A stretch of 64,000 bases of DNA. It comes from a virus. Within the stretch, counting starts at the first letter, position 1. Each line of letters begins with the position of its first letter. This document shows positions 3,359 to 33,773 of this stretch, in pieces. The notes beneath the pieces were generated by a model. It made no database searches. It worked only from the letters and a program-made list of their open reading frames with translations, and was not told the DNA's origin. The position numbers and the translations under genes were made by a program. The stretch covers positions 19,028 to 83,027 of the IMG/VR virus record IMGVR_UViG_3300033153_005694. The stretch is one strand, 5' to 3'.

Positions 3359-4696
3359 ATGGCAACAAACGTATATGGAAATGGTACTAATAGTACTGCT
3401 GGTGTGAATACAATTACGCATTATTACGACAGAGCAGGTATTAGAGCTGCAAATAGAGTAAATGTGTATGGACAATGGGCAGATAAAAAATCTCAGCCTA
3501 CAAAAATGGGTAAGACATTTAAGGTTTCAAAATTCTTACATATGTATGACAGAGCACAAAATGATGGTGACTTTGCAGGTAAAGGTTACTTAACAGCTAG
3601 ATCAGCTGCAGATGTATCAGCTGCTCTAACAGGTGCTACATTATCAGAAGGTGCTGGTGCGGTTAACAAGAAAAGTATCTCTAAAGTAACTGTTGAAGCT
3701 ACATTAGCTAGATATGGCGAAATGATTGACTATACAGATGAAGTAGAGTTGTTCTCAGAAGACTCAATGCAAGTTAAGTATAGAGAAGAACTAGGTGAAT
3801 TGGCTAACTCTAGAGAAGAGGATTTAATTCAATTAGATATGTTAGGTACAGGTACAGTACTGTATTCAGGTACAGCTACGTCTAAAATTGGTGTTGATAC
3901 TAAGATCTCTTACGACCTAGTGAGAAAAGGTGTTAGAAAACTAGTTAGAAACAGAGCTAAGAAAAATACAAGTATTGTTACAGGATCGACTAAAGTAGGT
4001 ACTGCTCCAGTTGCTAAAGCATACTATGGTATTATCGGTGCTGACGTTAAATCTGATTTAGAGTCAATTACTAGAGGTACAGACGGTGCTAAAGAATTTA
4101 CATACCAACCAGCTCATAAATATGCAGGTGCTGCAAGTTTAGCTGAAGGCGAAGTAGGTGCAATGCATGAAGTTAGATTTATCGAAGCTGAAGGTGCTGT
4201 TGTATATAGAGGTGAAGGTTCTGGTGTTATTAGCGATACTCAAGAAACTGCTGCTACAACTATAGTTAGTTCTGCTGTACAAAATACAGGCGCTGCTGCT
4301 ACAACTACTTACACTACTGGGAATGATAATTCTGCTGAGAGATTTGCTGCAATTTTAGCAGCTAGAGGGTCTGTTGTGTACGTTGATGCTTCTGATAGTA
4401 ATAATATCAAAGAAGCTACTGTAATTGGTGATACTGATATTGGTGGAACTGGTTCTGATGTACTTATTAATGAGTACTTTGATGCGTATCCTATTCTTTT
4501 CCCAACTGAAGGTTCATTTGCAACTGTTGGTCTAAAAGGTAAAGGTAAGATTAAATTTAACTCTAAAGCACCAGATGCTGTTGAATTATCTAACCCATAT
4601 GGGACACAAGGTTTCTTCTCATATAACTTCTGGTACGCTGGATTGATTTTACAAGAAGAAAAACTATTAAAAATCTTAGTTGCTGCTTCAGTATAA
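3359..4696 (+). CDS. Major capsid protein, N4-gp56 family
   Basis: Motifs P.KMGKT.K, LSEGAG.VN, GEVGAMHEVRFIE, NPYGTQGFFSY.FWY; strong SD; highly biased codon use. Confidence 0.9.
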   Translation: MATNVYGNGTNSTAGVNTITHYYDRAGIRAANRVNVYGQWADKKSQPTKMGKTFKVSKFLHMYDRAQNDGDFAGKGYLTARSAADVSAALTGATLSEGAGAVNKKSISKVTVEATLARYGEMIDYTDEVELFSEDSMQVKYREELGELANSREEDLIQLDMLGTGTVLYSGTATSKIGVDTKISYDLVRKGVRKLVRNRAKKNTSIVTGSTKVGTAPVAKAYYGIIGADVKSDLESITRGTDGAKEFTYQPAHKYAGAASLAEGEVGAMHEVRFIEAEGAVVYRGEGSGVISDTQETAATTIVSSAVQNTGAAATTTYTTGNDNSAERFAAILAARGSVVYVDASDSNNIKEATVIGDTDIGGTGSDVLINEYFDAYPILFPTEGSFATVGLKGKGKIKFNSKAPDAVELSNPYGTQGFFSYNFWYAGLILQEEKLLKILVAASV

Positions 4697-4707
4697 TAAG
4701 ATAAGGT

Positions 4708-4725
4708 GAGGGGGGTGACCCTCTC
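4708..4725 (+). terminator. Hairpin after the major capsid gene (possible terminator or stabiliser)
   Basis: GAGGGGG-GTGA-CCCTCTC inverted repeat with one G-U pair; no clear U tract. Confidence 0.4.
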
Positions 4726-4759
4726 GGCACACTAAACAACCAAATAAGGATTTAGAAAA

Positions 4760-5269
4760 ATGAGTTTACAAGAATTAAAAGTAGAAGCTAAAGAACTAGG
4801 TATTGATTTTAGCGCTAATATTGGAGAGAAGAAACTTCAAGCAAAGATTGATGAGTTTTATGAGTTACAAGAGACTTCAGGTGCTGAGATTGAAGCAGCT
4901 GTAGAAGCAAATGAAGCAGAAAAGGCAAACCAAGAAGAGACTAATGAGAAGCCTGCTGTAACTGGTAAAAAAGGTAAGAGAACACTGCAAGATAGAGCAG
5001 CTCAAGCAAAAAAAGAAGCAACGGCAACTAGAGTTGTTACTATTATTGATAATGATCAGAGGGTTAATAACCAGACTACAACATGTACTATAAATTGTAG
5101 TAATGAGTATTTCGACCTAGGTACAAGGATTACCCCATTAAATGAACCTGTCGAATTAGAACAAGGATTTATTAATTCGTTGAGAGAAGTAAAGATTCCT
5201 CAGCATATTAAAGATCCAGCTACAGGATTGAGTAGAATTACTATGAGAAATAGATATACGATATCGTAG
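4760..5269 (+). CDS. N4-like structural protein downstream of the major capsid gene (gp55-like)
   Basis: N-terminal LQELKVEAKELGI helical motif; synteny. Confidence 0.55.
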   Translation: MSLQELKVEAKELGIDFSANIGEKKLQAKIDEFYELQETSGAEIEAAVEANEAEKANQEETNEKPAVTGKKGKRTLQDRAAQAKKEATATRVVTIIDNDQRVNNQTTTCTINCSNEYFDLGTRITPLNEPVELEQGFINSLREVKIPQHIKDPATGLSRITMRNRYTIS

Positions 5270-5273
5270 TTAT

Positions 5274-5300
5274 ATAAACTCTTCTTAAGGAAGAGTTTAT
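5274..5300 (+). terminator. Intrinsic terminator-like hairpin
   Basis: Perfect 11-bp inverted repeat ATAAACTCTTC-TTAAG-GAAGAGTTTAT. Confidence 0.6.
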
Positions 5301-5340
5301 TATGATTATGGTATAATGAGAAAAATATATAGGAGAAAAT

Positions 5341-5712
5341 ATGAGTTGTAATATTGATAAGTTTGTTTTAACAAAAGGACTAGATAACGATTTTGTATTA
5401 ACAATAAAACAAACAGGTACAACTCTTCCTATGGAAATAGATGAGGTTAATGATACTTTTGCTGCGAAGCTGATTAATCTAGAAACAGAAGCAACTGTAT
5501 TGACTACTGAAATAGTGATTACTGTAAGTGATGCTTTAGGTGGTAAGATTAATCTGCAGTTTACTCAAGCAGATATAGATGCGTTAGATGCTGAACGAGG
5601 AGAAAAGGTAGATCGCTATTACTTGAAGCCTACGTATAAGCTATTGCTAGATTGTAGTACTACAAATAATGGTGACTTTATAGCGAAAATACCTCTGGTA
5701 TATGTGGAATAG
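5341..5712 (+). CDS. Tail or fibre adaptor-like protein
   Basis: Beta-rich 123 aa ORF preceding the fibre gene; AGGAG SD. Confidence 0.5.
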   Translation: MSCNIDKFVLTKGLDNDFVLTIKQTGTTLPMEIDEVNDTFAAKLINLETEATVLTTEIVITVSDALGGKINLQFTQADIDALDAERGEKVDRYYLKPTYKLLLDCSTTNNGDFIAKIPLVYVE

Positions 5713-16600: not shown

Positions 16601-19600
16601 TAAAGAAAAAATTGAAGAAGTAAAAGTAGAGCCTAAAAAAGAAGTAAAGATTGAAGAGAAGAAAGTTGAGCCTAAAGTTAAGAGAGAACTAGATATTCCA
16701 ACAGTTTACGAAGCGATAGTGAAAACTAAAAGTGCATATAAAGATGAAATAGAAGCACAGATAAGAGAACAACTAGATGGTACAGATAAAAAGTTACCGG
16801 TATGGGAACTTTATAGAAGTGAAGGTATACCAGGATCTACACCAAAGAAGATAGAACAGCTGATAAATGAGATTGTAGCAAGTGAACCGAGATATATAGA
16901 AGAAGTAGATGCATATATAGAGGGTAAAGAAGAGTATTACAAAGCTGCAAAAGATGATGGAACAGATACGATAAGAGCAAATATAAAAGCACTAGAGTAC
17001 TACGAAACTAGATTAGATGGTGAAATACAAAAGAAAGTTACAAAAGTAAAACAAAAAGAACAACAAAAACTAAAAACAAAGGTTAAAGAAAAAGTAGCTG
17101 CAGGAGTCGACTCGTTGCGAGTAAGAATAATGGATAAACTGAATAAAGTGAAAGAACTGTTTAGACCAAATACAGATAAGCAACGAAGTGTAGCAAGTCA
17201 GCTAGCAGCTGGGATAACAGAAGCTAGATTGATGGAGATGATGCCTGCAGTGATTCGAAAAGCAGGAGATAAAGGTAAAGATAAAGTACGACAAGCGGTG
17301 GTAACATTACAAAGATTTACAAAAGAAAAAAGTAGTACACCATTACCTAGTCAAACGCTAGCCGCGTTGAAGAATAAAATAAAAGTAGAAAAAGGTGATA
17401 ACTACATATTGGACGAATGGTTCAGCAAGCTTACAGAGAAGCAAGATAAAGAAGTAGAGAAATGGTTCAGAGTTGCTGTGAATGTGTCTGCAGTGATTGG
17501 AATGGGTAAGATGCTGGATGCTAGAAAGCTAAGTAGCAGTGAACTAGATGACTATGTGACAGGAGCATTCGGTGTATATGAAGGTACAGATGTACATAGT
17601 GAGTTGAAGAAGAAAGTGAAGAAAGGTGAGATAGTACCGATATCAACATATAGAAAAGAATTAGGTCAAAGATTGCTTAAAGAACTAGAATTGAAGTTTG
17701 ATATTGCAGAATTAACAGGGCAAGATAAACAAGATGTGACAATGGCAATAGGTCAACTAGTGATGGAAAGAATGAAGCGAGTTGCAAAAGCTGAGAGTCG
17801 GTATGGAGTAGAAGGTAAACAAGTAGGAATAAGCACAGAAGCTGGAACAGTAGAAGTAGCAGATAGTATCGATAACCCAAAAGGCGATAAGATCATCAGA
17901 ACTGTGTTAGAGTTTAAACTGTCAAGTGAAGCAGAAAGAGAACTAGATGTAGCAGCGAGTGTGCTAGAGTATGCTGGAACACAAGATCACGGAAATATAA
18001 AAGATGTGCCTACAGAGTACAAGTATGATAAGAAGATACGGAACAGTGAGATAACTATGCCGCGAGAAGCTGTGAAGTACTTGAATAAACAGAATAAAAA
18101 ATCATGGAAGTTCAACAAAGATTGGCAAGAGCTGTATAAAACTGTAGAGGAACGAGCAAAGAAAGAAGGCAGAACAGTAAACGAGTTGATGTACGAGTTA
18201 ATGCTAGATAATGAGCAAGAATTGATAGCGAATACACCAGCGATGGAAATAGAAAGTGTGATGGCTAAACTAGAAGCTGATAAGCTAGATGTAGACAGAA
18301 TGTTGATGGCATACGACATAGCAGGTGAAGGTGAGTTCTACCTAGATTGGGATTTCACGATAAGCGGAAGATATATGATAAGTAACAGAATGTTGAATCC
18401 ACAGAATAGTAAGATAAGTAGGTTTATCGTAGATATGCAAGGCCAAAGAAGTGTGCTAGAGAAAATAGATGGGAAGTATGATGAAGATGCGCTGCATATG
18501 ATAAAAGTAGCAGCAGCACAAGCATTGGGTATTGGAGTAGATAAAACGGTAGATGAAAAGGCAATTGAAGAACTAGGTAAGAATTGGTTTGTGATAGCTA
18601 AAGATGGCAAAGTAACGTATGCAGATAACAGAAATGCAAGAATACTAAAGAAAGCTGCAGAACTGCAAGAAGTGAATGCGATAGCTGCAATGAAGTTGTT
18701 GAATCAAACAGGTGTGATGCATACAGATGAGAAGATGCACGTGTACCAGATGTTGAAGGCGTTAAGAGAACTAGATAAAGGCAGCGATAAGACAGAGCAT
18801 AACCTAGCATTAGAGATGGATGGAATTACGAATGGTATGATGTTGACATTGCTAGATATGGGTTGGAATGAGTGGATTCAAAGTATGCTGGAAAAAGGTG
18901 GAATATATGACGTAGATAGCGAGTACGAGAACCATGGACAGTTTAAAGTTGCAGGTGGACAAGATATCTACGAAGTACCAGTGGACATGTTGAAGAAAAA
19001 ACTAGAATTAGGTGATGAAGAAACTGCAGAGTTGATTGAGCAAGCTGGATGGAGGAACTTTTTGAAGCCACTAGTGATGGTATTCATGTACGGCGCTGGG
19101 ATAAATAATATTCGAAGAAAAGCGGCTGAAGAGTTGGCGATGTTGCATGTGAAGAATGCAAAAGATGTAGGTAAGATTAAAGGATTGATGGCAGAAGCTG
19201 TAGGGTATATGAACTCGAGTAGAGAGACCACAAAGTATACGTCAGCTGCTAAAGTAGAATTTAAACAGTATAAAAACGGAGTGATGCGAAGTATACCAGA
19301 CGGAAAAGTAAAAGATGTGTATTTAAGCCCATACCAGATGTATATATTGAGTACGTACTTAGATGAAGCTGTGATAGGGAATTACATAGAAAATAGCTTT
19401 GAGACAGAGTTTAAACCAGTGGTAGAGTATAGACAAACGCTAAAAACAGTTGAGACAATGAACTACTGGGTGTTTAAACAGCAGTTAGAGAAGAAGTTGA
19501 AAGGTAAGAATGTTGCAGAGTTGACGGCTGAACAGTTAGAAGAAGTGTTGATGGAAATGATAGATGAAAATACGTTCTATGGAGCAAATGACGCGAATAA

Positions 19601-20342
19601 TGGAGTGCAAGATTACACAAAGATGGGAGATACACATGCGAATAACAAGGTACATGTAGCCGGGTTTGGAGGATATGCAACGAATATTGACGTACGACGA
19701 AAAGAAGTGAATAGTGCGGTTAAGGATTTCATCAGCAATATTGGTGCAGTAGGTGTAACAGCTATACATAACAAAGATGGTAGAGCAATGAATGAAGGAC
19801 ATATCAAAGATGTGTTGAATATCTTCGATGCACTGATGATGGGTACAGATGTAGAAGTGAATGGGGAGCAATCTGTAGCGATGAATAAATCGATGGTAGA
19901 TGTGAGTAGACAGCACGATATATTCGGAAAAGCTGTAGAAAAGTTAGTAGGAAATCTAGATAAAGTTAGCTTCGAAGAGATGAGTGAAGCTGATGTAGAG
20001 TCGCTACAAGATGACTTAAAAAGAGCATACGGGATTACAGGTGATGAAGATCTAGATAACATGACAGCGAAAGTGATGGAGATTATCGAGAAGGTAAGAG
20101 AAGATAGAAAGACACTAGGTAAAACTAGATTAAAAGTAAATCACTACTACGTGAGTGACAAAATGGGTCAGTATAAAGAAGAGCAAGCTGGAGAAACTAC
20201 GGGTATAGTAGAAGAACTAGGTGTACTAGAAGATAAGATGAATGAGATGTTTACAGCAGAAGTAAAAGTAGATGAAGCTGCTGTTAAGCCGGAAGATGGT
20301 ATAATAGCGAATATAGCAAATAATATCGAGGAATGTGTATGA
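13602..20342 (+). CDS. Virion-encapsidated single-subunit RNA polymerase (N4 vRNAP-like), N-terminal and catalytic part
   Basis: 2246 aa. T7/N4-type motifs: DFTISGRY..NPQNSKISR, motif A LEMDGITNG, motif B RNFLKPLVMVFMYG, motif C NIFDAL. Confidence 0.9.
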   Translation: MPIEIEYSSLLKGEVPATSKIESLQKRKYDKLERLAPEAANIQTAEQLQQSLSDIADQQIYTRPDGSKYQIDYMIDPVTGLSQGQQEVDYTKISRYGTPDTRNLYIDTSPEGAYKLGLARSDKGFMGRYTPGEDYGWAPGPKGVTPENGALMDIELPHDVATQFEYDVHTNVGQIRSRAAGPSIAEITAARPEFGSGVSEYTKPTAPMWNIGYVAPEGQLPEDTYMPKKLREVEKKKTFKDYLTEEEARSGERAAGGEELVSGLTKSLGTAFTKELAVDTADWIGDATGFWDIGSEDEKTKMVNEWFNYDPRNLEEAHKKVSVLNNKIWDEAKKGNIAWKELGEAIVTAVKEPELLGSSLGTIAAWVVPGAWLTKGKKFADAAGMAGKASHALKAQSGQITAAIGNVNDQYEEFVKNNNDVELQGIEKAEWFATRFGVQMLNQNLDAITATSIIKSPAMFNAAKQSIAGLTEKQFGKFLAGVGKVVGTTVVNMPKEAVQEYTQRMMELTNERFGAEKFKDLDTFGKFLLDEGVMKEGTLDALMGAAGAVQFQAIGAVPQALRGAKEVVADAVGGEVDPDVQRMPTGVAGRRRVFNSDEAMDYVENEKSRDVFTKSITDYTVDLYFLPEEQASSQYAGIKDVKERNKRILDDTVEKIAKVNGLETNAEKEYIYQQVADKLKKEFVKASEKGDGKVEEKDEFYSGLLTASDDNKYVRREVDDAYREELLSNMVEFKKELDRRGVEVKDIELNPEEQKKVLKVLDRMKRLGSEELEDEARIIAEALKLAEAQDKKTVADVRREIEVTGFLKGGKNYKGLKDHTVDIEGDIVSGKDSVANVEMLQKFAESRGANEVQLFYTDAKGNRVQRNPVTIHRFIQDRQEDTQKIADTVNKLLAVENISPKIKEQLETVQKTVNDNLQEVEKLSKIDDKELVETLIEMPQNIASKGLVKIPKAKVKAEEVVAEEMPVDEYADIDVTETVIELPVEEIVVEKPKVKPVKVAKEKIEEVKVEPKKEVKIEEKKVEPKVKRELDIPTVYEAIVKTKSAYKDEIEAQIREQLDGTDKKLPVWELYRSEGIPGSTPKKIEQLINEIVASEPRYIEEVDAYIEGKEEYYKAAKDDGTDTIRANIKALEYYETRLDGEIQKKVTKVKQKEQQKLKTKVKEKVAAGVDSLRVRIMDKLNKVKELFRPNTDKQRSVASQLAAGITEARLMEMMPAVIRKAGDKGKDKVRQAVVTLQRFTKEKSSTPLPSQTLAALKNKIKVEKGDNYILDEWFSKLTEKQDKEVEKWFRVAVNVSAVIGMGKMLDARKLSSSELDDYVTGAFGVYEGTDVHSELKKKVKKGEIVPISTYRKELGQRLLKELELKFDIAELTGQDKQDVTMAIGQLVMERMKRVAKAESRYGVEGKQVGISTEAGTVEVADSIDNPKGDKIIRTVLEFKLSSEAERELDVAASVLEYAGTQDHGNIKDVPTEYKYDKKIRNSEITMPREAVKYLNKQNKKSWKFNKDWQELYKTVEERAKKEGRTVNELMYELMLDNEQELIANTPAMEIESVMAKLEADKLDVDRMLMAYDIAGEGEFYLDWDFTISGRYMISNRMLNPQNSKISRFIVDMQGQRSVLEKIDGKYDEDALHMIKVAAAQALGIGVDKTVDEKAIEELGKNWFVIAKDGKVTYADNRNARILKKAAELQEVNAIAAMKLLNQTGVMHTDEKMHVYQMLKALRELDKGSDKTEHNLALEMDGITNGMMLTLLDMGWNEWIQSMLEKGGIYDVDSEYENHGQFKVAGGQDIYEVPVDMLKKKLELGDEETAELIEQAGWRNFLKPLVMVFMYGAGINNIRRKAAEELAMLHVKNAKDVGKIKGLMAEAVGYMNSSRETTKYTSAAKVEFKQYKNGVMRSIPDGKVKDVYLSPYQMYILSTYLDEAVIGNYIENSFETEFKPVVEYRQTLKTVETMNYWVFKQQLEKKLKGKNVAELTAEQLEEVLMEMIDENTFYGANDANNGVQDYTKMGDTHANNKVHVAGFGGYATNIDVRRKEVNSAVKDFISNIGAVGVTAIHNKDGRAMNEGHIKDVLNIFDALMMGTDVEVNGEQSVAMNKSMVDVSRQHDIFGKAVEKLVGNLDKVSFEEMSEADVESLQDDLKRAYGITGDEDLDNMTAKVMEIIEKVREDRKTLGKTRLKVNHYYVSDKMGQYKEEQAGETTGIVEELGVLEDKMNEMFTAEVKVDEAAVKPEDGIIANIANNIEECV

Positions 20343-24495: not shown

Positions 24496-24951
24496 TTACT
24501 CCTTTGAAGCTCTTTCATCGAGGATTGCTTGAAGCCTAGGTTCTGGGTTAGGGAAGTTAGCAGGCTTGATAAGCTTGCCATATGAGTCCTTGGGACAACC
24601 TAGTTTAACTTGATTTGCATCCATAACGACGTTAAGGGCAGCAGTGATTTGCTGTGGTGTAAGATCTAGTTTAGTCATAGAACCAATAGCGAAAACTACT
24701 GCATCGCAAGCTTTGTCGAGTCTATCAACATCAGACAGTACTGTCTTTTGTCCATAACACTCATTGATTATTCCTCTACTAATTTCTCTAGCAGATGGAG
24801 CACATCTAAGATTTGAAGCTATATCTTCAAGAAAAAACCCTTCAAGAGCTTCCTCGATTTGAAATGAGGACTCAAGAAAGTCATCGTAACCTGCAGAAAC
24901 TAGGTCTGCTGCATGGTTGAATTGATGGATACGCTTGATCGGGTTAAGCAT
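24496..24951 (-). CDS. MazG-like / all-alpha NTP pyrophosphohydrolase
   Basis: EEALE...D.ACDAVVFAIG...V.DAN..K...D..GKLIKP..F.NPE pattern. Confidence 0.75.
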   Translation of the reverse strand: MLNPIKRIHQFNHAADLVSAGYDDFLESSFQIEEALEGFFLEDIASNLRCAPSAREISRGIINECYGQKTVLSDVDRLDKACDAVVFAIGSMTKLDLTPQQITAALNVVMDANQVKLGCPKDSYGKLIKPANFPNPEPRLQAILDERASKE

Positions 24952-25204
24952 TGTATTTGCCTAAAATGCTGTCTAAAAGAATAATTGCTTTAGCCTCATC
25001 TAGTGAAGGTATAGATCTGTGTCTAAGGTGTAGTTCTAGTCTACTAGTGATGACTTGTTCGATAAGAGATAAAGTAGATTCTGGTTGTATAGGCTCGTCT
25101 GGTAAGCATACTTCAGTAGGTGTTTCGTCGATATCAAGAGTATTAAGATCTAGTTTCTCAAGCTCTTCAAGAATATCGAAAATTGTGGTTTGTCGTTGTA
25201 TCAT
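24944..25204 (-). CDS. Hypothetical protein
   Basis: Likely start MIQRQTTIFD at 25204 after an AAGG SD, rather than at 25336. Confidence 0.5.
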   Translation of the reverse strand: MIQRQTTIFDILEELEKLDLNTLDIDETPTEVCLPDEPIQPESTLSLIEQVITSRLELHLRHRSIPSLDEAKAIILLDSILGKYNA

Positions 25205-25298
25205 AGGTTGCCTTTGTAGGTTGCGGATTTGGTACGTGTTCAACTGCTTACCGAAGGCAGTGGTGGGGGCGATACTCCACATAACGCGACAAGTACGG

Positions 25299-25652
25299 TT
25301 AAGATAAATGTTCTTCGAAAAGGTATTGGTGATCACTAGGCAATGAGTCGAATATAGCTTGCGCTAAATCGCGAATTTCCCAAAGTGCTGCTTTCGAAGA
25401 ACGGAGGGCTAAGAAGTTTTGGAGTGAACGTGCGTTGATAGTCCACATTAGCTCGGTTTTGTAGGCCTCACATAGGTTATATTTACTAATATCACCAGCT
25501 GTTCCTGATTTTACGTTTTGTCTCATTAGTTCAAGAGAAATAATAGATTGATAATCTGTTAAATCATGGCCTGTAAGTACTAAGTATTTACTCGCTCGTT
25601 CAACAGTTTTTGCTGATATAGGTCCGAACTGTCCCTGTAATTCACGTATTAT
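25299..25652 (-). CDS. thyX: Flavin-dependent thymidylate synthase ThyX, C-terminal half
   Basis: The open frame extends upstream of the annotated ATG: IIRELQGQF...ERASKYLVLTG...EAYKTELMWTINARSLQNFLALRSSKAALWEIRDLA. Confidence 0.85.
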   Translation of the reverse strand: MIRELQGQFGPISAKTVERASKYLVLTGHDLTDYQSIISLELMRQNVKSGTAGDISKYNLCEAYKTELMWTINARSLQNFLALRSSKAALWEIRDLAQAIFDSLPSDHQYLFEEHLS

Positions 25653-26230
25653 AATATTTCCTTATATCGTTTCTTTGCATTGTAATAAGCTGTTCGTGAA
25701 TATCCAAATGAGGTATACGCTTCAGCAACTTTAGCTCCTGTAGCTATTAAGGCTACTACGTCTTTATATTGTTTTGCCGATATTGCTATTTTGTCTTTAC
25801 CAGCATTTTCTTGGTTAGTAATAAAAACACAGTTATCTGGTGTGTAGTTTAGGTTAGCTTTTGAACGATCAATAGTTAGGTTGTCAGTATAACCACTAGA
25901 TAGTGCCCAAGTTTTAAAGACTAGATAATCATCCCATTCGTCACAGATAGTGATACCTCTGCCGCCATATAACGGATACTTAGGGTCATTAGGATTATTA
26001 CATCTAGCTCTCATATTAGTCCAAGTTCGGTATAATCTAGTATATCTATCACCATGTATTGTTACTTTCGCTGTTTGGGATTCTCTAGCACATGATGGGC
26101 ATTGCTCTTGAACTTTTCCTTGGTGTTTCATCCGTTCAATAAGCTTACTGCATGTAGGGCATTTAAACTCTGCCCACATATAGCCTCTTTTACCACTATT
26201 TCTAACTTCCAACTCTCGTATTAATTCCAT
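25649..26230 (-). mobile_element. HNH-family homing endonuclease inserted within thyX
   Basis: CxxC zinc sites and RLYRTW.NM..RC...YGGRGI.ICDEW...TIDR....NY.PDNC motif; own promoter at 26258-26280 and AAGGAG SD. Confidence 0.85.
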
Positions 26231-26275
26231 AATACTCCTTTATATTTGTATACTGTTATTTTAACATAATACAGC

Positions 26276-26602
26276 TTAAAAAGAGATAAAAGGTTCTTCA
26301 TTTTTAAGTTCTTTAGAAGTAGTATATCTAGTAGACTTTACAGAGGGACTTGCCATACGGTGGCGAGCTAGTTCTTGAAGTAAAGCTCGAGATACACCTT
26401 TGATCTCAAAATTGTAGGATAAGTGTTCGAGAGTTGAAGAGTGCTTGAATTTGTTGCCGACTCTGTGGATAAGATCTCGGTCGTTAGGGCCGATATTATC
26501 GTCAGTATTGCAAGTGTCGGATTTGCCTTCAGAGGCCCAACACTTGCGGATGGCTTTAGCTGCGATTGGGAGAGGTGTGTGATGGTGTAAAGTAACTTCC
26601 AT
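26276..26602 (-). CDS. thyX: ThyX, N-terminal half
   Basis: HSSTLEH and ELARHRMASPSVKSTRY (RHRx7S motif). Confidence 0.9.
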   Translation of the reverse strand: MEVTLHHHTPLPIAAKAIRKCWASEGKSDTCNTDDNIGPNDRDLIHRVGNKFKHSSTLEHLSYNFEIKGVSRALLQELARHRMASPSVKSTRYTTSKELKNEEPFISF

Positions 26603-26730
26603 CAGCCTCTCCTCAAAATGTCTTCGAGTTTGATGATGATTCTCTCGAGGAACTTGTAGTCTTCAGCTGTTTGGCAGTATTGAAGTTCAAGTCTGAGGGT
26701 TTCAAGATAGTGTTTTAAGCATGCTTTCAT
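26602..26730 (-). CDS. Small hypothetical protein (42 aa)
   Basis: ATGA-coupled to phoH and TGATG-coupled to thyX; read manually. Confidence 0.5.
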   Translation of the reverse strand: MKACLKHYLETLRLELQYCQTAEDYKFLERIIIKLEDILRRG

Positions 26731-28106
26731 AGCGGTTCCTTGCTGTAGATTTTTTCGGCCCATTCAGCGATAGGTGAACGTACGATTTTGGTTAACGGTA
26801 CAACGTGTAGACGAATGATGTCTTGCGGTTTAGTGGCCTGATTTAAGAGGACAGATAAGCCGTTGTTATATTTGGTAATGTATGCGTTATCGATTTGTCG
26901 ATTAGAACCGATGATGATGATCTTGCAGTTCTTGCCGAATCTAGTTAGCATCTTCTGGAGTGATGCTTGAGATTGGTTTTGGACTTCGTCGATGATTGCA
27001 ATAGTATTGTTGAATGTTCTGCCACGCATACCAAGACCTGTCATGGCTTGAATATTGTAGTATTCCTGTAATTCCTCGACTTTGGCTGAGACGAATTGCT
27101 CGAACTCTTGGCCTTTGAGCTTTGACTTCTTATGACGTTCACGTATGATGAAGTCCAAAGTGTCGTAGAGAGGATGCAGGTAAACTAGGTTTTTGTCGTC
27201 GGCAGAACCTGGTAAGAATCCAATCTGTTCGATATCTTCGACATCGTCGATAGATGCTCGAATGTATGTGATGGACTCGTACGAGTTGTTTTGTCGAACA
27301 AGTTTCATAGCGTTGGAAATTGCAGTTGCCGTTTTGCCGGTACCTGCAGGAGCTTCAGCTAAAACTAGAGTAGTAGTTAAGTCTTGAATTGCTGCCGATA
27401 AGAACATCTGGCCCGAGTTAATGGGGTTGAGGTCTTGTGCGCGTAAATCTGACTCTTGCTTTTTACCGATAACGTCGATGAGGAAATTGGGCTTGATGGT
27501 AGCAAGCTTCTCATAACCTAGTGATTCACAAGTGAATCGGTAGTTGAAGTTTTCAGGCTTGTGGTCTGGATTGACTGAGTATATGTTAGAATTTGACAGT
27601 AGTCCGAATTGTTCGGGTGTTACTTCGATAGAACGTATAAAGTCAGGATCAGTATCGTCGACAAGTTTGATGTCGGATACTTGTAGGCCAAGAGATTGCG
27701 CTCTAATACCACACATAACGTCGTTGGTGTAGAAAACTGTGTCGTGAAGCTTTGCATAGATTTTCGCTATATGGATAATCTTACGATCGTTGATGATGCT
27801 GTGATGGGCGCTAGAGTAGTCTGGATATTCAGAACATGCTACGATATGTATGGTAATGTTGTCTACTACTCTGCGAGTAACAGTGTAGTCACCTGTAGTA
27901 GAGGAACCTAGATGAGTTGCTCTAGTTAATAAGCGACCAAATGCACGAGCTTGATAGCCAAGAGATCCTGATTCGGATTTCTTGCCGTCTAGTTCATCGA
28001 GGACTGTCTCCGGAAGTACTATAGTGGTATCCGAAGATTTGCCGAGAGTTAAAAGGTTGGTATGATCTAGGAGTAGGATGTTGGTGTCTAAGATTTTATA
28101 GATCAT
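26727..28106 (-). CDS. phoH: PIN-PhoH (PhoH2-like) ATPase
   Basis: N-terminal PIN LDTNILL; Walker A APAGTGKT; IGFLPGS, MRGRTF, IIDEVQN. Confidence 0.9.
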   Translation of the reverse strand: MIYKILDTNILLLDHTNLLTLGKSSDTTIVLPETVLDELDGKKSESGSLGYQARAFGRLLTRATHLGSSTTGDYTVTRRVVDNITIHIVACSEYPDYSSAHHSIINDRKIIHIAKIYAKLHDTVFYTNDVMCGIRAQSLGLQVSDIKLVDDTDPDFIRSIEVTPEQFGLLSNSNIYSVNPDHKPENFNYRFTCESLGYEKLATIKPNFLIDVIGKKQESDLRAQDLNPINSGQMFLSAAIQDLTTTLVLAEAPAGTGKTATAISNAMKLVRQNNSYESITYIRASIDDVEDIEQIGFLPGSADDKNLVYLHPLYDTLDFIIRERHKKSKLKGQEFEQFVSAKVEELQEYYNIQAMTGLGMRGRTFNNTIAIIDEVQNQSQASLQKMLTRFGKNCKIIIIGSNRQIDNAYITKYNNGLSVLLNQATKPQDIIRLHVVPLTKIVRSPIAEWAEKIYSKEPL

Positions 28107-32495: not shown

Positions 32496-32898
32496 TTATG
32501 GAATCTCCTTTGTAGGGATTAGAGTAACTTCACATCTAGGATTGACTTTGTCTTGGGAAATCACTTTCCAAGTTGTACCTAGATGAAACTTAGTGTTGTC
32601 TTGTTCTACTATGTTGTGCTCTTGTAAAGCATCGAGTACGAATTTTTCCACCATGGAAGCGATATTTGAACCGTCGCAAGATGGGTTTTTGTAATACAGA
32701 TGAATTTCAAGAGTGTATGAGCTGGAAATAACATTACCGGTTAGTTGCTGTTTAACAAGCTCGTGGTAATGGGTTTTGACTTCATTCTTCTCATGGTAGT
32801 GAGAATTACCGGTACCAATTCATACCAACTAAGAACGTTTTATCGTCTTTAGTCTTGTAGGTTTTGGTGTAATAGATAGGGAGTATTAAATTACTCAT
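32496..32898 (-). pseudogene. RusA-like Holliday junction resolvase with a 1-nt insertion
   Basis: MNWYR|NSHYH...CDGSNIASMVEKFVLDALQEHNIVEQDN...DKVNPRCEV. The span is 403 nt (3n+1) with a break at CGG TAA T (32806-32811). Confidence 0.7.
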
Positions 32899-33404
32899 GA
32901 AGAGGGCTCCTCCTTTATAGATTGTATAGGTATGTTGAGATTATGCTCAAGTATATAACTATTTCTGACAAGTAAGGCGGTATATTCTGTATTATAATAG
33001 CCAAGGTGTGTTTCTCTACCTTTACTAATAGATAGGAATACTGCCCATTTACCATTTCGTTTATAAAAACGTATACCTTTATAGTTACCTATTTGCTTAC
33101 TTGAAGGTACTTTCCTGTTTAGTGAATTATCCCTAGGAGTAACAAACCTACAATTAGAAGGCTCATAGTTACCATCGGAGTCTTTACGATCGATTTGCAA
33201 GTTTTCCTGGTGTCCATTAGCCAATGCCCAACTTTTAAAAATTGGGTAGTCTTCCCATTCAGTACATACAGAGATGCCTTTATGCTTATAGTACTGTGCA
33301 GAATCTACACAGTCATACTTACATCTAGCTCTCATGTTATACCATAGGAGATATAGCTTTGTTTTATTTCCCTTGTTAGCATCGTTATGTATACGTTTAC
33401 CCAT
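32895..33404 (-). mobile_element. Free-standing HNH-AP2 homing endonuclease
   Basis: LQIDRKDSDGNYEPSNCRF (HNH-like) plus YKGI...KW...HLGYY (AP2-like); own promoter at 33434-33456. Confidence 0.85.
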
Positions 33405-33479
33405 AGTAATCCCTTATCATATTAATATATGTAATTATATACCAATTCAACTTAGATATTACTTAAGTAGATAGGGAGA

Positions 33480-33773
33480 TTAAGCACCGGCTATCTTCAG
33501 CTTAAGTGCCGCTGATGGTTTAAATTTGATAACTTGCTTAGCTGGAGTGCTGTATGTTGTGCCTGTTGAGGGTGATATACCAGACTGTGCAGCTTGAGTT
33601 GCAGGTTTAAAACCACCGAATGCTTGACCTAGATATACTTCGCTGCCTTCAGAAATGTGGTTTGAAATAACTGTTAAAAGTTCGTCCAGTACTTCAGTAG
33701 CTGCTGCTTTTGAACCTAGTCTGTTGTGGTTTGCTAGTGTGTCAATGATGTCTAATTTTGAGATTTGTGCCAT
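33480..33773 (-). CDS. HU/IHF-like DNA-binding protein
   Basis: FGGFK...G.SPSTG....PAKQVIKFKPSAALK; CAGGAGG SD. Confidence 0.9.
   Translation of the reverse strand: MAQISKLDIIDTLANHNRLGSKAAATEVLDELLTVISNHISEGSEVYLGQAFGGFKPATQAAQSGISPSTGTTYSTPAKQVIKFKPSAALKLKIAGA

Follow-up and report, generated by a model that had tools for sequence, protein, structure and literature searches.

The locus described here is a thyX gene in two pieces with an HNH endonuclease gene between them, and it lies in a 64,000-nucleotide stretch of viral DNA (positions 19,028 to 83,027 of IMG/VR record IMGVR_UViG_3300033153_005694; hereafter the window). The record is an 83-kb metagenome-derived viral contig with an estimated completeness of 79%. 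All three coding stretches are on the minus strand. The upstream piece (N-half, 26276..26602) is an open reading frame (ORF) of 108 aa that matches Pfam Thy1 at 74.9 bits and residues 1-99 of the Helicobacter pylori ThyX structure 3AH5 (E 2.6e-32), carries the RHR...S..SxRY motif of ThyX, and ends ...KNEEPFISF-TAA in a variable loop. Its last codon and its TAA are supplied by a promoter-like box, TTTAAG-N11-TAAAAT (26280-26258), which opens a short segment, read from the sequence (26231..26280), that also holds a Shine-Dalgarno (SD) sequence, AAAGGAG at 26241-26235; exactly 45 nt separate the TAA from the ATG of the HNH gene at 26230. The HNH ORF (25649..26230) encodes 193 aa and stops with the TAA at 25651-25649.

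The downstream piece (C-half, 25299..25661) is a frame of 120 open codons that follows a TAA at 25664-25662 and stops at 25301-25299. It occupies the -1 frame of the HNH gene and begins GGA AAT ATT ATA ATA CGT, so that the end of the one overlaps the opening of the other. An SD-like AAGGA (25659..25663) sits within the last codons of the HNH gene, and the start candidates that follow it (25647..25655), namely ATT 25655, ATA 25652 and ATA 25649, are all near-cognate codons, ATA 25652 overlapping the HNH stop as ATAA. From the opening of the frame to the ATG at 25526 there is no ATG, GTG or TTG; this first canonical start lies 45 open codons in (42 from ATA 25652) and has no SD ahead of it, and the product that it would begin, of 75 aa (P0120), is all of the C-half that the source annotation holds. 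The N-half and C-half ORFs, 627 nt apart, differ in frame and have stops between them; the insert is ~630 nt, of which the HNH ORF makes up 582 nt. The coordinates, the ending of the N-half, the 45-nt gap and the opening of the C-half frame in the end of the HNH gene all agree with a preliminary description made from the letters of the window.

Both pieces are recognizably ThyX. Against Pfam Thy1 (PF02511, cut-off 24.8 bits), the N-half covers profile positions 3-94 of 191 and the C-half covers positions 121-184 at 59.7 bits, while residues 10-119 of the C-half frame align with residues 96-206 of 3AH5 (E 9.6e-27). The preliminary description had seen about 40 ThyX-like codons ahead of the ATG at 25526, a reading borne out by this alignment and by 71% identity over 117 residues to P0116, a C-half-only relative described below; measured against P0116, the segment upstream of that ATG is as conserved as the remainder of the C-half. 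The motifs RHRxxS...SxRY and NxRSLxxFLxLR, which we take to be those of ThyX and whose conservation was measured here, are divided between the pieces, the N-half carrying ARHRMASPSVKSTRY and the C-half NARSLQNFLALR. In a profile hidden Markov model (HMM) built from 92 intact sequences, the N-half corresponds to nodes 1-99 (residues 1-106 of its 108) and the C-half to nodes 103-205 (from residue 13 counted from ATA 25652), and the two ORFs together therefore make up the whole protein. The window retains 41 of the 43 columns with a conservation of 95% or more. One deviation is a Pro to Cys change in LPE, where other split C-halves have I, L, G, V, S or C; the second, RYT-TS-KELK, lies beside the insert and recalls an extra residue in other split N-halves. 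Neither half contains a frameshift or an internal stop, and no further decay was seen.

The closest solved structure, H. pylori ThyX (PDB 3AH5), is a single polypeptide, and the closest named phage proteins are those of Campylobacter phages (Fletchervirus and Firehammervirus-like), to which the N-half is ~58% identical; a megablast search found no close DNA relatives in named phages. The window keeps all the catalytic motifs of these proteins, which are single chains of ~205-220 aa, and departs from the one polypeptide per subunit of ThyX in having two ORFs in different frames. A two-chain structure prediction, of the kind the preliminary description had proposed, gave the N-half and C-half an interface score (ipSAE) of 0.85 (best of three controls, 0.00), a level reached by 58 of 80 solved complexes and by 2 of 110 mismatched pairs. 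The partners have predicted local distance difference test (pLDDT) values of at least 84, at least 93% of contacts agree between runs, and residues 61-71 of the N-half pair as strands with residues 64-74 of the C-half. Because ThyX structures have been solved, the prediction speaks for likeness to a known fold and not for binding, and the score may reflect the model's memory of those structures.

Could the insert be spliced out, as a group I or group II intron carrying the HNH ORF, as an intein or as a split intein, to give a single ThyX chain? Phage group I introns often host HNH ORFs, inteins in ThyX are mentioned in part of PMC3620165, and 'fractured genes', in which split inteins surround an endonuclease gene, are described in part of PMC2677866. 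Nevertheless, we consider splicing very improbable here. Rfam searches at E <= 10 found no intron family on window positions 24800-27000 or on positions 3900-5350 of a second split locus (L006, below), and the part of the insert outside the ORF, ~45 nt plus a few nt, offers neither a ribozyme core nor the room for one. Pfam found no Hint or intein domain at the locus, and no Hint blocks flank the break in frame with would-be exteins. The ThyX match reaches to 2-3 residues from the N-half stop and resumes ~12 residues after the C-half frame opens; the <=~3 and ~12 residues left unaccounted for are far too few for intein halves. The halves are out of frame with each other, with stops between, and relatives of the C-half have an SD and an ATG of their own. 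What is found is an endonuclease gene between two halves that cover the whole protein, the downstream half overlapping it.

Fusion of the endonuclease to the ThyX C-half by a -1 frameshift near the HNH stop would draw on the position of the C-half, which is at -1 relative to the HNH ORF and opens four codons ahead of the HNH stop. We judge this extremely improbable because GAA ATA TTA TAA contains no slippery heptamer of the form X XXY YYZ and because a 7-nt difference in L006 alters the frame relation; the C-halves of relatives are, moreover, annotated as separate proteins starting with Met. That an HNH cassette splits thyX without intron or intein, as the preliminary description had it, is upheld by the empty Rfam searches, by the 582 of ~630 nt taken up by the ORF and by the different frames of the halves, and we regard a split without splicing as very likely.

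The middle ORF matches the PHROG HNH endonuclease families phrog_374 (E 6e-35) and phrog_3377 (8e-32); it has no Pfam HNH match. Searched against a collection of 5.8 billion proteins, which also served for the searches with the two thyX halves, it gave 97 matches, about 30 clusters of them full-length at 54-76% identity. The motif LTIDR...NY.P.NC...T..EN is invariant in 18 relatives, and the relatives all end ...YYNAKKRY followed by 2-6 variable residues. The gene is free-standing, with no intron or intein signal around it and with an SD and the promoter-like box upstream.

Other HNH genes and boxes of this kind were seen elsewhere. A second HNH-family gene in the window (32895-33404, minus strand; 169 aa) is 45% identical to the thyX-splitting HNH protein over residues 62-154, has an extra C-terminal domain, and is free-standing after a small HU-like gene (33480-33773), with TCTAAG-N11-TATAAT ahead of it (box 33434-33456). 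In other phages, an HNH homologue is free-standing in L024 (6013-6486), directly after a ribonucleotide reductase gene, and a larger one lies in L099 (2230-2817), ~700 nt downstream of an intact thyX. The box TTTAAG/A-N11-TATAAT recurs in the window at 1684, 11427, 13551 and 20283 on the plus strand and at 26280, 33456, 42373 and 44947 on the minus strand, one copy sitting 28 nt ahead of a 1239-aa ORF at 20333, and may represent the promoter type of this phage.

The split is not unique to the window. Among the loci for which DNA could be read, one other, on the IMG/VR viral contig L006, is split: its N-half ends FCTFK-TAA inside TTTAAATAAACCTATGGTATAAT, a 183-aa HNH ORF (phrog_59) follows, and the C-half starts at AAGGAAAT-T-ATG, 11 nt before the HNH stop. 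The two loci share the loop that is broken, an N-half stop inside a TTTAAR-N11-TAWAAT box, an HNH ORF and AAGGAAAT before the C-half. They differ in that the C-half of L006 has an ATG, and in the endonuclease itself, the phrog_59-type protein of L006 and the phrog_374-type protein of the window being unrelated (BLASTP E 21).

Protein searches point to many more such halves. The N-half query returned 115 proteins of 59-189 aa, and 18 of the 46 fetched end no more than 20 residues after RY(T/V), with termini that recur: EEPFI or AFI (P0009, P0089, P0094, P0086 and P0030), FCTF(K/N) (P0033, which is identical to the L006 N-half, P0034, P0063 and P0069), SFLQE (P0002, P0005, P0010 and P0023) and F(V/I)(V/I)DM (P0007 and P0018). 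The extra residue of the window in RYxxSKxLK is common to P0009, P0089, P0094 and the SFLQE class; N-half matches with odd tails may be fragments or frameshifts. With the C-half as query, 391 proteins were found, and among the best 120 of these 22 were fetched, of which 14 are C-half-only proteins of 107-128 aa that start in the loop; the other eight, starting inside the N-part, are probably fragments. Thirteen of these 14 C-halves start with Met and one, P0132, with V. The tail of the window C-half, IIRELQGQFG, matches those of P0116 and P0122 (the C-half-only set runs from P0116 to P0135 and the N-half-only set from P0002 to P0094). Contigs of equal size pair the HNH protein P0239 with the C-half P0124, P0007 with P0127 and P0018 with P0126, a pairing of N-half, HNH and C-half genes that is suggestive only. 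A scan of viral contigs with the window HNH protein gave one distant locus, a scan of the same kind with P0116 gave one intact thyX, and a scan of genome contigs with the HNH alignment gave 14 distant HNH loci, none within 2.5 kb of a thyX. Judged from these sequences, the split would belong to a widespread lineage among uncultured phages related to those of Campylobacterota.

To place the two split loci among intact genes we used a quick whole-gene tree (94 rows, junction columns removed), in which L006 stands beside the intact L003 (SH-like approximate likelihood ratio test, SH-aLRT, 95) and the window beside the intact L047, L099, L091 and L001. Independent splits in the window and L006 were considered and dropped, given that an approximately unbiased (AU) test, with 7 long-branch and 19 near-identical rows left out, does not reject a clade of the two (p 0.304) and that the C-half trees place both in one clade. 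A careful tree of the C-part (67 rows, 112 columns) was made without the long-branch L030, L029, L045, L028, L098, L043, L008, L044, L118, L015, L016, L018 and L011 and without 28 near-identical rows. It unites all 16 split C-halves in one clade (ultrafast bootstrap, UFBoot, 100/SH-aLRT 98; 100% of 200 bootstrap trees), on few columns and with a clustering that is favoured because the C-half-only proteins were chosen as best matches to the window. The corresponding N-part tree (68 rows, 88 columns) requires 10 changes (bootstrap range 9-11) to account for the 18 split N-halves, of which the starred branches force at least four, and it nests the intact L003 with N-halves of the L006 type (98/96).

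The C-halves of P0132 and L006 (4917-5258) are identical over their last 56 residues and only 25/53 (47%) identical before that, next to the endonuclease gene; such a sharp mosaic boundary, seen in sequence comparison, hints at gene conversion. With the C-halves in one clade, the N-halves scattered and this boundary, the evidence suggests that the C-half travels with the endonuclease. Placing the long-branched C-part of L003 with the L006-type C-halves is not rejected on the careful tree (AU p 0.356), and on the quick tree the constrained search was better by 23.7 lnL (log-likelihood units) than the free one (p 0.789). Mosaicism between L003 and L006 in this part is suggested but not proven. 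tblastn, phmmer and MAFFT all align the tail of the C-half onto the KELK..F segment at the end of the N-half; taken as a duplication of that segment, the tail brought no significant gain in a profile-HMM score, which was equalled in 55 of 300 trials with the first 14 residues shuffled, and the duplication is a lead more than a finding. One tentative reading, which we hold to be rather unlikely, is that the mobile unit would be a module comprising the promoter, the HNH gene and the C-half of thyX, which spreads from phage to phage by overwriting the 3' part of a resident thyX and into which different HNH genes have been swapped; it would explain the single C-half clade, the scattered N-halves and the (K/R)EL..F copy in both halves.

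The closest C-halves with the same tail, P0116, P0122, P0117, P0118, P0129 and P0123, begin MKLIREL, MKIIREL, MKNGLIREL, MNGLIREL, MSGLIREL and MEIFREL, respectively, where the window reads GNIIIREL, and their initiator Met aligns with GGA or AAT of the window (25661-25656), one to two codons upstream of ATA 25652. Aligned as DNA, the ATG of L006 falls within a 7-nt stretch that is absent from the window, and ATT 25655 corresponds to the third codon of L006. The preliminary description had put the apparent start at ATA 25652, in an ATAA overlap in place of the usual ATGA; these alignments give that codon no support as the start or as a mutated ATGA, and leave ATT 25655, ATA 25652 and ATA 25649 equally open as starts. 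Either ATT or ATA 25652, if changed to ATG by one substitution, would create an ATGA overlap with a stop of the HNH frame, and ATGA is, as had been claimed, the usual overlap in the window (in a crude gene call it was the commonest type, accounting for 6 of the 15 same-strand overlaps); the sequences of the relatives do not show an ATG at ATT or ATA as the ancestral state. In E. coli reporters, initiation at AUA, AUU, AUC or CUG reaches 1-2% of that at AUG (part of bioRxiv 10.1101/063800).

The thyX of the window may be dead or dying, its split form having once worked, as it would in relatives, with the start of the C-half since lost, only the N-half and the endonuclease made, and the phage relying on the host for synthesis of deoxythymidine monophosphate (dTMP). 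The 45 open codons without ATG, GTG or TTG before 25526, the GGA or AAT in place of the relatives' Met together with the missing 7 nt, the low yield of near-cognate codons in E. coli and the long end branch of the window in the whole-gene tree (0.82, vs 0.24 for L047 and 0.44 for L099) make this a serious possibility, if short of a probable one. It has to be set against two halves free of frameshifts and stops, the 41 of 43 highly conserved columns that are kept, 42 upstream codons as conserved as the rest, a well-placed SD that is retained, and a short window branch (0.22) in the C-only tree. A normal ATG could also be hidden by an error of assembly or consensus where the HNH gene meets the C-half, such as a short indel or miscall in AAATATTATAATA: the contig comes from a metagenome and is an estimated 79% complete, the sequence at this point is an A/T run of low complexity, a canonical start is present in all the relatives seen, and one substitution would be enough (ATT or ATA to ATG, either giving the ATGA overlap). 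The adjoining frames are both intact and properly ended, however, and nothing else in the locus looks miscalled, and we think such an error unlikely. If the gene is indeed split without splicing, translation of the C-half from a near-cognate codon and a real loss of the start appear to us about equally credible, each somewhat below an even chance, with an assembly error a good deal less so; the first two are the alternatives that the preliminary description had offered, a two-chain ThyX with coupled non-AUG initiation and a recently inactivated gene.

An alignment of intact relatives places the break where a loop of variable length (0 to ~40 residues) begins. The closest syntenic relative, L047, matches the window in the order of PhoH, thyX (here intact) and an orf151 homologue, and its loop reads through in one frame at the site of the window's insert. 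An intact thyX in L027 (8-634) carries an acidic insert of ~40 residues in exactly the loop that is split in the window and L006, and the loop is for that reason taken to be tolerant. Separately, the intact thyX genes of L047 (199-945) and L099 (792-1532) have a zinc-ribbon-like CxxC...CxxC insert of ~40 residues in the N-terminal variable region; the insert occurs in several intact relatives and is absent from the window ThyX. Just upstream of thyX in the window is a gene for a 459-aa PhoH-like ATPase with an N-terminal extension (26727-28106, minus strand), and between the two lies a 53-aa ORF (26602-26763, minus strand), whereas in L047 PhoH abuts thyX directly.

We propose, and think likely overall, that thyX is here a gene in pieces: a cassette with a free-standing HNH homing endonuclease would have entered a hypervariable surface loop just after the SxRYTLKELKxEEPF segment, bringing with it a promoter-like box, an SD and a 193-aa ORF; its 5' end would give the N-half its stop and its 3' end would give the C-half its SD. 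With splicing of neither RNA nor protein, the N-half (RHR/SxRY) and the C-half (NARSLQNFLxLR) would be translated separately, and the two chains would come together in the ThyX fold. Related C-halves share the tail (L/I)IRELxGxFG and start with Met; the window copy has no such Met codon, and its C-half, if made, would start at ATT 25655, ATA 25652 or ATA 25649, with initiation following the AAGGA and coupled to the end of HNH translation.

Several observations weigh against this proposal. Splits are rare in readable DNA: all 107 loci with an N-terminal match (match start within query residues 1-5; L006, L031, L032 and loci with a partial or no N-match set aside) translate for at least 180 aa without a stop, and in all 75 metagenome loci with both matches a single frame runs through with no stop; the remaining 4 of 79 have the C match only. 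Apart from L006, the short relatives are proteins, for which stops, gene order and an intervening HNH gene are deduced from termini and contig sizes. The promoter that the preliminary description placed at the HNH gene fares unevenly: the N-half TAA does lie inside TTTAAG-N11-TAAAAT, but the box is a consensus match, sites of the TTTAAG type are only weakly above chance in number (11 vs 7.3 expected, one mismatch allowed), and ahead of the HNH ORF a sigma-70 scan turned up no promoter. The ATG that L006 and the 13 listed C-half-only relatives starting with Met all have is missing from the window, which agrees with a lost function no less than with a weak start. The junction, finally, is known from a metagenome assembly, a search for sequencing runs over 25299-26602 having listed none, nor any RNA source, and expression of the halves is a prediction.

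To our knowledge, genes broken by an endonuclease gene without an intron that work as two chains number very few, chiefly nrdA of Aeromonas phage Aeh1 (Friedrich et al.; Crona et al. 2011). The analogy with Aeh1 nrdA/mobE drawn in the preliminary description is apt, as far as the layout nrdA-a / mobE / nrdA-b given in part of PMC3045599 goes: in both, a free-standing HNH-family gene sits in a gene of nucleotide metabolism without splicing, active-site residues are spread over two chains, there is an overlap between the endonuclease gene and the downstream half, and the halves carry terminal tails absent from intact homologues. That part of the same paper reports the tails created by the insertion to be essential for assembly, and presents Aeh1 as the split case, none of 1200 surveyed nrdA genes being split into several coding regions. 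The present locus differs from the Aeh1 system as described there in that the target is ThyX and not a class Ia ribonucleotide reductase, that activity of the two chains is putative, that the second half has no canonical start, and that the split is found again in many diverged relatives, with two or more HNH genes that are unrelated to each other. With the 'fractured genes' of Dassa et al. (2009), as set out in part of PMC2677866, it shares a broken host gene, a free-standing endonuclease between the pieces and an origin mainly in metagenomes; unlike those, it has no intein halves, the N-half having no more than three non-native residues and no Hint domain. Searches of full-text literature on thyX with homing or HNH endonucleases and split or interrupted genes (subscription journals and supplements lay outside their scope) found no split thyX described, and passages of PMC11934525, PMC6715854 and PMC10893344 make no mention of one. 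What is new is that a split thyX recurs among relatives and that the second chain of the window copy lacks a canonical start.

Because the annotation of the window kept only the 75-aa stub P0120, split thyX loci of this kind are easily misread as pseudogenes. A lineage in which a two-piece ThyX recurs would provide a naturally occurring fragment-complementation system for a drug target of bacteria lacking thyA, a case of different endonucleases at one site, and a test bed for how far sequence of the host gene is co-converted with a homing endonuclease. Were the C-half indeed part of the mobile module, two-chain ThyX would be a stable, selected form, and the supply of the C-chain would be set by translation of the HNH gene, in this phage by way of a non-AUG start.

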